A DNA stretch of 24,000 bases from Bacteroidia bacterium (lineage in GTDB: Bacteria; Bacteroidota; Bacteroidia; B-17B0; Aurantibacillaceae). The notes below the pieces were generated by a model that saw only the letters and a list, made by a program, of their open reading frames with translations, was not told the origin of the DNA and made no database searches. How positions within the stretch are numbered: position 1 is the stretch's first letter; each line of letters opens with the position of its first letter. Location: contig JBIICN010000004.1 of the NCBI GenBank assembly GCA_044238845.1, positions 73,785 through 97,784 on the forward strand. Reading direction: 5' to 3'. Both the position numbers and the translations under genes were made by a program. Of the stretch, positions 13,601 through 13,935 are shown one piece after another.

Positions 13601-13673
13601 TTAGGATAACAGGACTTGAACCTGTAGCCTTGTACGCATAAGGTACTTGCTCTTACCATTGAGCTATATCCTA
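13601..13673 (-). tRNA. tRNA with anticodon UAU (Ile-type, AUA reader)
   Basis: UAGGAUA UA GCUC AAUGGUAA GAGC A AGUAC CUUAUGC GUACA AGGCU ACAGG UUCAAGU CCUGU UAUCCUA A. It has a U1-A72 pair. Confidence 0.75.
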
Positions 13674-13677
13674 GTTG

Positions 13678-13760
13678 CGGAGAGTATAGGAATCGAACCC
13701 TGTCCTTTCGGACCGCCTCAGATTTCAAGTCTGATTGATCACCAATGATCGCTACTCTCC
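13678..13760 (-). tRNA. tRNA-Ser (UGA), class II, weak T stem
   Basis: GGAGAGU ... UCAGA CUUGAAA UCUGA + variable arm GUCC GAAA GGAC + T region ACAGG GUUCGAUU CCUAU + ACUCUCC G. Confidence 0.7.
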
Positions 13761-13772
13761 TTTTTTATTTCG

Positions 13773-13857
13773 CGGAGAAATGAGTTCCCGACACCCATTC
13801 GCCTTGACGAACACTTTGCTTAGCAAGCAAGTCTGAGCCCCGCTCAGTTATTTCTCC
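13773..13857 (-). tRNA. tRNA-Ser (GCU)-like, class II, non-canonical D arm and T loop
   Basis: GGAGAAA UA A CUGAG CGGGG CUCAG ... CUUGC UUGCUAA GCAAA ... UUCG UCAAGG CGAA ... UGGGU GUCGGGA ACUCA UUUCUCC G. The T loop is GUCGGGA rather than UUCGAAU. Confidence 0.6.
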
Positions 13858-13861
13858 TTTG

Positions 13862-13935
13862 TACCTTCTGTAAGATTCGAACTTACACTAACTTGTTTCT
13901 AAGACAAGCGCCTCTACCCATTGGGCTAAGAAGGT
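13862..13935 (-). tRNA. Class I (short variable loop) tRNA with the Leu anticodon UAG, atypical
   Basis: ACCUUCU UA GCC CAAUGGGUAGA GGC G CUUGU CUUAGAA ACAAG UUAGU GUAAG UUCGAAU CUUAC AGAAGGU A. It has an A1-U72 pair. Confidence 0.65.

Follow-up and report, generated by a model that had tools for sequence, protein, structure and literature searches.

A compact array of transfer RNA (tRNA) genes lies on the minus strand of a 24,000-nucleotide stretch of Bacteroidia bacterium contig JBIICN010000004.1 (the window, always taken at its full length) and is very likely an accessory, phage-type array within an RNA-repair island. It occupies positions 13105-14010 and consists of 11 genes packed into 906 nucleotides (nt) with spacers of 2-14 nt. 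A fuller account, judged with some reserve to be the probable one, describes it as an accessory operon of phage-type tRNAs in a damage and rescue island, attenuated in its leader and releasing spare decoders upon ribosome stalling. For comparison 64 related loci (labelled with L numbers), almost all from Bacteroidota, were fetched by the AAA+/M41 protease encoded beside the array, and the first 60 of them were scanned with ARAGORN. At least four tRNA genes within 10 kb of the AAA/M41 gene were present in about 15 of the 60, and the array was absent from most loci holding the core of the island. It is thus an optional part of the island and accessory rather than housekeeping, as a sequence-only reading of the window had proposed; the class I architecture of its Leu member and the non-canonical form of its Ser members likewise depart from a housekeeping set. 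The members are the following, in transcription order.

13939-14010, minus strand: tRNA-Gln(UUG), first gene of the array (U1-A72, A73, G32, loop GUUUGAA; ARAGORN, Rfam tRNA model at 57 bits)
13862-13935, minus strand: class I tRNA-Leu(UAG) (ARAGORN, Rfam, family alignment)
13773-13857, minus strand: tRNA-Ser(GCU)-like RNA (sequence, alignment, minimum-energy fold)
13678-13760, minus strand: tRNA-Ser(UGA), probably of the 8/4 type (relaxed ARAGORN, alignment, minimum-energy fold)
13601-13673, minus strand: tRNA-Ile(UAU) (U1-A72, A73, G37; ARAGORN, Rfam)
13511-13586, minus strand: tRNA-Pro(UGG), long-D-loop type (C1-G72, A73, A37, loop UUUGGAA; ARAGORN, Rfam)
13435-13507, minus strand: tRNA-Phe(GAA) (G37, loop UUGAAGA; ARAGORN, Rfam)
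13357-13430, minus strand: tRNA-Arg(ACG) (C1-G72, G73; ARAGORN, Rfam)
13276-13348, minus strand: tRNA-Pro(UGG), second type (G37, loop UUUGGGA; ARAGORN, Rfam)
13191-13264, minus strand: tRNA-His(GUG) (encoded G-1 at 13264, C73; ARAGORN, Rfam)
13105-13186, minus strand: class II tRNA-Tyr(GUA), last gene of the array (ARAGORN, Rfam)

Nine of these genes were called by ARAGORN, in the order Gln(UUG), Leu(UAG), Ile(UAU), Pro(UGG), Phe(GAA), Arg(ACG), Pro(UGG), His(GUG) and Tyr(GUA), and the Rfam tRNA model backed all nine, together with a lone Lys(UUU) gene elsewhere in the window, at 35-68 bits. The gap between Leu and Ile holds two further genes, the Ser(GCU)-like and the Ser(UGA) ones. Re-folding by software produced neither canonical structures nor other anticodons, and the oddities listed by the sequence-only reading, which had named no strand for them, stand. 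The UAU anticodon of the Ile gene was recovered (Rfam 68.1 bits; anticodon loop CUUAUGC), and the two Pro(UGG) genes do have different bodies under one anticodon, with distinct D arms and anticodon stems, common acceptor and T arms, and an enlarged D loop in the gene at 13511-13586. Starts with C1, U1 or A1, which had also been counted as irregular, are present (C1 in both Pro genes and Arg, U1 in Gln and Ile, A1 in Leu), but C1 in tRNA-Pro and U1 in tRNA-Gln are ordinary for bacteria and constitute no anomaly. The anticodons are mostly U34 or G34 in a genome of about 32% G+C, and a GNN-reading member (Val, Ala, Asp, Glu or Gly tRNA) is lacking in the arrays of the window and of the Bacteroidota loci L001-L058. 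CCA is encoded in none of the array tRNAs, and C follows the discriminator in nearly all of them in the window and the related loci; the 3' trailer is most often CAA (69 of about 135 genes in the window array and related loci), and this conserved start after the discriminator may be a processing signal. Also observed was a 15-nt motif with the core TCAAAGAACGTT, which occurs just 3' of tRNA-Tyr (13088-13102), just 3' of a Y-RNA-like module (10067-10081) and inside rtcB2 (18644-18658).

The Leu(UAG) gene is class I, as had been claimed: ARAGORN reports tRNA-Leu(tag), the Rfam tRNA model scores 64.2 bits, and the variable loop UUAGU has 5 nt. Its further features are A1-U72, A73, C13.A22, A37 and the D arm UAGCCCAAUGGGUAGAGGC, and it carries both marks of the class I Leu family, namely the D-arm motif UAGCCCAA-N1-3-GGNAGAGGC and A73. 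In the alignment of this short Leu family (12 sequences) 92.9% of cells were paired and 16 of 21 pairs had changed on both sides; none of 500 shuffles was as good, and slid controls were also far below the observed value. Nine members of the family have the anticodon UAG, two have UAA and one has CAG; each of these specifies Leu, and A73 is invariant. The tRNA-Leu genes outside the arrays in related loci measure 85-87 nt and belong to class II. The accompanying statement that the known bacterial tRNA-Leu are all class II proved too broad, for Streptomyces coelicolor has a chromosomal type I tRNA-Leu(CAA) with a 5-nt variable loop, which is leucylated by its own leucyl-tRNA synthetase (LeuRS) and not by that of Escherichia coli (PMC6614811); such tRNAs can therefore be functional.

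The two Ser genes are further from the norm. The Ser(GCU)-like gene has exactly the 5-base-pair (bp) D stem, 5-nt loop (CGGGG) and T loop GUCGGGA that had been described, in addition to a GCU anticodon, a long variable arm, G73 and, in the best-fitting structure, a 6-bp anticodon stem with one bulge; drawn as 8/4 it has an 8-bp acceptor, a 2-nt linker and a 4-bp T stem. Its T loop stands where UUCRANN is usual, without the usual U54 and A58, and the gene was not called by ARAGORN even at a relaxed threshold nor matched by the Rfam tRNA model at E<=10. It nevertheless belongs to a family found in 9 arrays, odd T loop included, whose 8 distinct sequences, once aligned, are paired in 98.6% of cells and show two-sided changes in 10 pairs. 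The Ser(UGA) gene, missed by ARAGORN at default settings and recovered at a relaxed threshold, combines an 8-bp acceptor (in the 8/4 drawing), a 5-bp D stem with a 4-nt loop, a long variable arm, a canonical T loop and G73. The poor pairing noted in its T stem is real, amounting to two mismatches when the molecule is drawn as 7/5 and to one A.A mismatch when drawn as 8/4; in the latter form the stem has three pairs and an A.A at its base that is conserved in the family (9 sequences, 93% of cells paired, 9 pairs changed on both sides). RNAfold at minimum energy turned both genes into cloverleaves whose acceptor has 8 bp and whose T stem has 4 bp, and the D stems and variable arms covary in both families. 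The eighth acceptor pair never varies in either family, so covariation cannot tell 8/4 from 7/5, and the 8/4 reading rests on pair counts (for Ser(UGA) the 7/5 drawing costs one mismatch more), linker geometry and folding. In Rfam the Ser(UGA) gene matched only tRNA-Sec (35.5 bits against a threshold of 47); a role as tRNA-Sec or stop-codon suppressor was rejected, given this subthreshold score, an anticodon UGA that reads UCA/UCG, and a T stem of 3-4 pairs.

In the nearest relatives of the array the anticodons are identical and their order almost so, and the set is kept across loci whose AAA/M41 proteins are only 60-77% identical. The odd forms are not products of chance or decay because they recur in related loci with compensatory base changes; judged from these alignments, the odd tRNA bodies are kept by selection across related genomes. 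Position 37 behaves less regularly. G37 of Ile(UAU) is private to the window, all relatives having A37, the near-identical L001 included, and the Phe and Leu orthologs have either A or G; the 77-nt Pro(UGG) type has A37 in every ARAGORN-called copy of the related loci. The idea that swapped purines at position 37 are a fixed hallmark of the array was dropped as only partly true, since this Pro type alone is consistently A37.

Several relatives carry additional elements within the array. In L001 (about 13025-13190) an insert of about 75 nt lies in the anticodon loop of Ser(UGA); in L002 (about 15430-15520) and L004 the D loop of class I Leu contains a hairpin, and the L004 gene has a plain hairpin instead of its T arm. 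In both L004 and L008 (about 19190-19300) an Ile-like tRNA has its anticodon loop enlarged by a conserved insert of about 40 nt that includes the hairpin AAAGUCCACUGGACUUU; the altered stretches of L004 are at about 16669-16760 and 16950-17060. A conserved open reading frame (ORF) of about 110 amino acids (MRTTVEFKN...GFDKHRGAIDEKDSLITKENGF...) stands between Ile and Phe in L008 (about 19330-19690) and L016 (about 19375-19720). Arrays of the Ohtaekwangia type (L020, L037, L032 and L035, about 15400-16760, minus strand) contain stranger tRNA-like genes with T loops that include GGAUCGUGCCC and GGAGCGUUACCAGG, a 91-nt Ile(UAU) with a long variable arm, similar to the allo-tRNA(UAU) group, as well as a 96-nt element whose anticodon is ambiguous.

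The phage-like character that had been suspected is supported by relatives of class I Leu, 8/4 Ser(UGA) and A37-type Pro in phage tRNA clusters. When the class I Leu D-arm motif was scanned in IMG/VR, at least 120 viral contigs matched. Among the matches listed, 117 tRNAs were called Leu, all short and all with A73 (47 UAA, 34 UAG, 24 CAA, 6 GAG, 5 AAG and 1 CAG; G1.U72 in 55 and G1-C72 in 49 of the 117), and four more had no isotype call. Matching genes, mostly annotated as tRNA-Leu, also exist in cultured phages of Streptomyces, Gordonia, Vibrio, Escherichia and Salmonella. In Streptomyces phage Alone3 (L196, OR725492, 8223-11279) the annotated tRNA-Leu genes measure 74 and 75 nt and belong to a tRNA cluster near a gene for a "Ro-like RNA binding protein", which echoes the pairing of Ro60 with the tRNA array in the window; a gene of the same cluster annotated tRNA-Ser(gct) measures 74 nt, and at this length it would encode a Ser tRNA with a short variable loop. 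The 8/4 Ser(UGA) form occurs in viral tRNA clusters alongside short Leu tRNAs, and the D arm of A37-type Pro is shared by a few viral Pro(UGG) genes (about 7 matches, all A37). As a family-specific marker the D-arm motif of the 77-nt Pro type was rejected, the viral search with it having matched mostly phage tRNA-Met(CAU). The 3' motif of the Ser(GCU)-like gene had no match in viral contigs, and this member appears to be a lineage-specific variant whose phage origin is not demonstrable. Where these Leu and Ser types occur in phage clusters, GNN-reading tRNAs are found beside them (for example L186). As for the literature on phage class I tRNA-Leu, only the S. coelicolor paper turned up, and the phage family as such was not described in the literature searched.

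Upstream of tRNA-Gln the window contains a promoter region and three predicted leader units, and a partly similar arrangement precedes rtcB2, the first gene of the rtcB2-prfH-AAA+/M41 operon (14693-18796, minus strand) that lies directly upstream of the array.

14493-14721, minus strand: promoter/operator region of the array (motif search, alignment, repeat search)
14370-14504, minus strand: predicted attenuator unit A, with leader ORF 14427-14504 MKNYFTYRQKFSPIGHSPLLCLWGQ and terminator 14370-14396
14241-14350, minus strand: predicted attenuator unit B, with leader ORF 14300-14350 MKRSTQPLFYFIPGYS and terminator 14241-14266
14017-14133, minus strand: predicted attenuator unit C, with leader ORF 14077-14133 MALRPHSFIYSFQSQLND, terminator hairpin 14026-14053 and a U tract
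18982-19309, minus strand: rtcB2 leader region, with promoter copy 19082-19309, leader ORF 19035-19067 (MLALNLNKHT) and terminator 18982-19005

A sigma-70 promoter scan is uninformative for Bacteroidota (4 sites against 5.2 expected), and a search for TAnnTTTG was used instead, which found a Bacteroidota-type -7 box, TACATTTG, at 14527-14534 (minus strand). About 230 nt around this box (14493-14721) are duplicated at 19082-19309, upstream of rtcB2-prfH-AAA/M41, with 72-73% identity, in repeat blocks of 183 nt (73%) and 60 nt (72%). The promoter region shared with rtcB2 points to co-regulation of the array and the rtcB2-prfH operon.

Between the promoter and tRNA-Gln three tandem units are predicted, each composed of a short ORF with an A-rich start context, an antiterminator and an intrinsic terminator, the last of which, in unit C, ends 7 nt before tRNA-Gln. 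In unit A the sequence GGGGU, contained in the codons TGG GGT, pairs with ACCCC; in unit B the antiterminator partner begins 4 nt past the stop codon; in unit C the antiterminator GGAUUGG also begins 4 nt past the stop, a distance that is exactly 4 nt in five loci, and it covaries with the terminator arm (GGAUUGG/CCGAUCC versus GGAUCGG/CCGGUCC). When the nascent RNA was folded as far as the terminator loop, an antiterminator formed in 17 of 18 units across loci, the 5' arm of the terminator pairing at the end of the leader ORF or from 4 nt past its stop.

The composition of the leader ORFs follows that of the array. Against a background fraction of cognate codons of 0.262 in the window genes, leader A has 14 of 24 codons cognate to array tRNAs and covers 10 of 10 tRNA types (simulated P = 9e-5), leader B has 10 of 15 and 8 of 10 types (P = 5.7e-4), and leader C has 12 of 17 and 9 of 10 types (P = 6e-5). 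Among the 218 small ORFs in the window they take places 1, 2 and 5. Of the rare codons ATA and CTA, the first is present in all three and the second in two, and across loci ATA is present in 12 of 14 leaders. The 14 leaders pooled contain 59% cognate codons versus 26% in genes and 34% in null small ORFs, and 14% GNN codons versus 30% in genes; only 0.7% of null small ORFs (n=1763) reach both 58% cognate codons and 8 types. Homologous leaders were found in L001-L004, L008, L010, L011 and L016, with frame and composition kept more than the exact sequence. In the Ohtaekwangia arrays, which are of another type, the leader abounds in Asn, Lys, Ile(ATA), Phe, Pro, His and Tyr and so matches the tRNAs present there (Asn, Ile(UAU), Lys, Phe, Pro, and either His or Tyr). 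Taken together, attenuation control of the array is probable. Since almost every array tRNA has its codons represented in each leader, the gate should open when a single decoder is lost, as would suit a response either to anticodon nucleases or to translational stress in general.

The second operon has a leader as well. A 10-codon leader of rtcB2 (elsewhere similar to MLVLNLHTKP) followed by a terminator is present in ten loci (L001, L003, L004, L007, L008, L010, L011, L013, L016 and L064), which suggests that the rtcB2-prfH ribosome-repair operon is also gated by leader translation. Its terminator has the form CCCGG-N7-8-CCGGG-U6, and the sequence AAGCCGG overlapping the leader stop can pair with the 5' arm of the terminator.

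The proposed sequence of events would be as follows. In a healthy cell ribosomes would reach each leader stop and cover the antiterminator, the terminators would form and the array would stay off. If any of about ten tRNA species were cleaved or depleted, or if translation slowed, ribosomes would stall within the leaders, antiterminators would form and transcription would read through into the array. RNase P and 3' processing would then free the spare tRNAs, host synthetases would charge them and decoding would be restored, and meanwhile RtcB, PrfH, Ro60 and other products of the island would repair the damage. In the most speculative step the atypical bodies would make the spare tRNAs poor substrates for the damaging nucleases; such evasion is plausible only, with phage tRNAs as a precedent of nuclease escape (PMC10264068, PMC11555353, PMC11464382).

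Several points weigh against this account. The redundancy of the array with the housekeeping tRNA set of the genome is an assumption, and everything said of regulation is read from sequence. The failure of E. coli LeuRS with the class I tRNA-Leu of Streptomyces (PMC6614811) makes charging by the host LeuRS uncertain here. The leaders of L008 and L016 fit less well (35-50% cognate codons), and noncoding small ORFs on AT-rich antisense strands can score high, the empirical null being much heavier-tailed than the codon-usage null. The A/G flips at position 37 among orthologs could reflect relaxed constraint rather than nuclease evasion, and some copies look damaged, among them the window Ile(UAU) with its G37 and the relatives with insertions or a replaced T arm.

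The same observations bear on the alternatives. The array products might not decode at all and serve as decoys or sponges that soak up anticodon nucleases or tRNA-binding toxins, or as a source of fragments that signal damage to a regulator. Non-canonical features, a variable position 37 and the placement of the array next to RNA-repair genes and a WYL regulator agree with this, a sponge role has been raised for the array tRNAs of Anabaena (PMC8421152), and some irregular tRNA polycistrons were inactive in E. coli translation (PMC5389517). It is nevertheless considered unlikely, since Leu members all retain A73 as an identity element, Ser members G73 and a long variable arm, His G-1 and C73, and Pro C1-G72 and A73, the anticodon changes within the class I Leu family stay among Leu codons, and cognate-codon leaders close a feedback loop only if the products decode those codons. 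The leader ORFs made of cognate codons thus argue that the array products decode, and of the labels offered by the sequence-only reading "decoy" is the least favoured, given the conserved anticodons and identity elements and leaders built of codons that array tRNAs read.

Another explanation sees in the array a booster of codon supply for A/U-ending codons in an AT-rich genome, or a response to general inhibition of translation, for example by antibiotics, with no link to tRNA cleavage. The U34 and G34 anticodons suit the base composition (about 32% G+C), ribosome-targeting antibiotics induce the array of Anabaena (PMC8421152), and leader-peptide attenuators would answer any slowdown of elongation, so that on regulation this explanation overlaps the stalling-release account and differs from it in the trigger alone. 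It is rated improbable, because a sensor of stress in general could do without leader codons matched to the array and without shunning GNN codons, and the neighbours are genes for repair of RNA breaks and rescue of damaged ribosomes. Very improbable, finally, is a decaying remnant of a captured phage tRNA cluster, with neutral relics or pseudogenes and upstream small ORFs that are AT-rich accidents: phage-type members, two genes that escape default ARAGORN and the Rfam tRNA model, the private G37 of the window Ile(UAU), the insertions and replaced T arm in relatives and the lack of the array in most loci with the island core would agree with it, but compensatory changes keep every helix, the two oddest genes included, the anticodon set is conserved despite the divergence of the AAA/M41 proteins, nine arrays preserve even the odd T loop GUCGGGA, the promoter region is dedicated and duplicated, and the units of leader, antiterminator and terminator retain their frame and geometry.

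The island in which the array is embedded includes the following further features.

3504-5331, minus strand: two RlaP nucleotidyltransferases
6447-7874, minus strand: RtcB
8979-9052, minus strand: lone tRNA-Lys(UUU) (ARAGORN, Rfam)
about 9072-10120, minus strand: Y-RNA-like (YrlA-like) modules, between Ro60 and tRNA-Lys
10316-11833, minus strand: Ro60/TROVE-vWA
11934-13082, plus strand: WYL-WCX regulator
14693-16717, minus strand: AAA+/M41 protease (Pfam)
16707-17348, minus strand: PrfH (NCBIfam PrfH equivalog, 246 bits, cutoff 167)
17393-18796, minus strand: rtcB2, the second RtcB (Pfam)

The RtcB2-PrfH pair is known to rescue and repair ribosomes cut by colicin E3 (PMC9304027, PMC9223846), and a PrfH subfamily of Flavobacteriia is on record (PMC12829566). 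The YrlA-like modules are several and have a permuted tRNA-like order (T arm, then D arm); the Rfam YrlA model scored 29 bits at 9072-9189 and 21.9 bits at 9372-9466, against a threshold of 69. That the array members are themselves Y RNAs was rejected, as the permuted modules lie elsewhere (9072-10120) and the array genes keep normal anticodon arms. In L012 and L022 a Y-RNA-like module is located directly 5' of the tRNA array. Amid the Y-RNA-like genes of the window a Flavo-1 RNA motif was seen at 9659-9741 on the plus strand (39.4 bits, threshold 42), which hints at a host from Flavobacteriia, the probable class of this Bacteroidota genome. Beyond the rtcB2 leader the plus strand encodes an M48-type peptidase (19448-20659) and then a DUF4011 and AAA_11 helicase (20662-24000) of more than 1112 amino acids, cut off by the window edge. 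With a score of 262 bits for the candidate phage-defence family PDC-S37, this helicase puts a gene of defence type at the border of the repair island. No phage structural or integration genes were found in the 24-kb window.

Accessory tRNA arrays are widespread, and the arrangement described here suggests a testable logic for them, in which codon-specific stalling is sensed and spare tRNAs for the same codons are expressed alongside RNA ligases and a release factor for damaged ribosomes. In its most developed form, which is put forward tentatively as a possibility short of the probable, the locus would be a self-contained circuit of tRNA homeostasis, where three stalling sensors working as OR gates release nuclease-resistant tRNAs of phage derivation in parallel with a similarly gated rtcB2-prfH operon. 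Attenuation of tRNA operons was not encountered in the literature searched; if the circuit is true, these would be, within that literature, the first tRNA genes under leader-peptide attenuation and a chromosomal bacterial counter to anticodon nucleases that acts by replacement and not by repair. Should this be confirmed, tRNA availability would have compact natural sensors in the leaders, and candidate scaffolds of a nuclease-resistant or orthogonal kind could be drawn from the atypical tRNAs. Apart from regulation, a large family of tRNA-Leu with a short variable loop is common in phages without discussion in the literature searched, and the lineage of 8/4-type tRNA-Ser with an altered T loop extends to Bacteroidota; both odd families bear on the tolerance of LeuRS, SerRS, EF-Tu and processing enzymes for non-standard tRNA bodies.

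Among known systems the leaders of the trp, his, phe and thr operons are the classical leader-peptide transcription attenuators. The predicted units resemble them in a short ORF enriched in regulatory codons, in an antiterminator that competes with an intrinsic terminator, and in the masking of the antiterminator by a ribosome at the stop codon, and differ in having tRNA genes and not amino-acid biosynthesis as the target, three units in tandem, and a mixed set of about ten codon types in place of a run for a single residue. The Rfam leader models (Trp_leader, Phe_leader) gave a weak match of 28 bits, below threshold.

For the unusual bodies the nearest counterparts are of two kinds. The type I tRNA-Leu(CAA) of S. 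coelicolor likewise combines a Leu anticodon with a 5-nt variable loop in a bacterium, while the gene of the window has the anticodon UAG, a Bacteroidota host and membership in an accessory array. The 8/4 architecture is known from some phage and bacterial tRNA-Ser and from the allo-tRNAs (Mukai et al., PMC5389517; reviewed in PMC7609411), and for other allo-tRNAs serylation and use in translation were demonstrated in E. coli (PMC5389517). Common to them and to the two Ser genes are the long D stem with a 4-5-nt loop, the long variable arm, G73 and the presence in phage and bacterial tRNA clusters, to which the 8-bp acceptor with a 4-bp T stem would be added on the 8/4 reading, and with the (8/4) tRNA-Ser subgroup both genes share Ser anticodons. 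The differences are that Bacteroidota are not among the taxa named there, "Bacteroidetes" being absent from the main text of PMC5389517, and that the Ser(GCU)-like gene has the GUCGGGA T loop, a bulged 6-bp anticodon stem and no viral-contig match.

Phage tRNA clusters directed against tRNA-targeting defences (PMC10264068, PMC11555353, PMC11464382) have the class I Leu, 8/4 Ser(UGA) and A37 Pro families in common with the array, and the role proposed for them, to swap cleaved host tRNAs for variants that escape the nuclease, is similar; the array differs in its chromosomal location, its tie to repair enzymes, and its Bacteroidota-type promoter with predicted attenuators. The long tRNA arrays (L-arrays), for example the trn operon of Anabaena sp. 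PCC 7120 (PMC8421152, PMC10272220), are comparable as sets of tRNA genes in a single operon, supernumerary (by assumption in the present case), patchy and horizontally spread, reported in Bacteroidetes too, and situated in neighbourhoods enriched in RNA-processing genes. In Anabaena these arrays are induced by translational stress and co-regulated with rtcB (PMC8421152), and the parallel would extend to a predicted co-regulation with rtcB via shared promoter elements and to a putative link with translational stress. Unlike the 26-gene Anabaena operon, the array of the window has 11 genes, is embedded in an island with Ro60, RtcB, PrfH and AAA/M41, and includes several non-canonical architectures; and where the former is controlled by the repressor TrcR acting on direct repeats, the latter is predicted to be governed by leader-peptide attenuation in three units.

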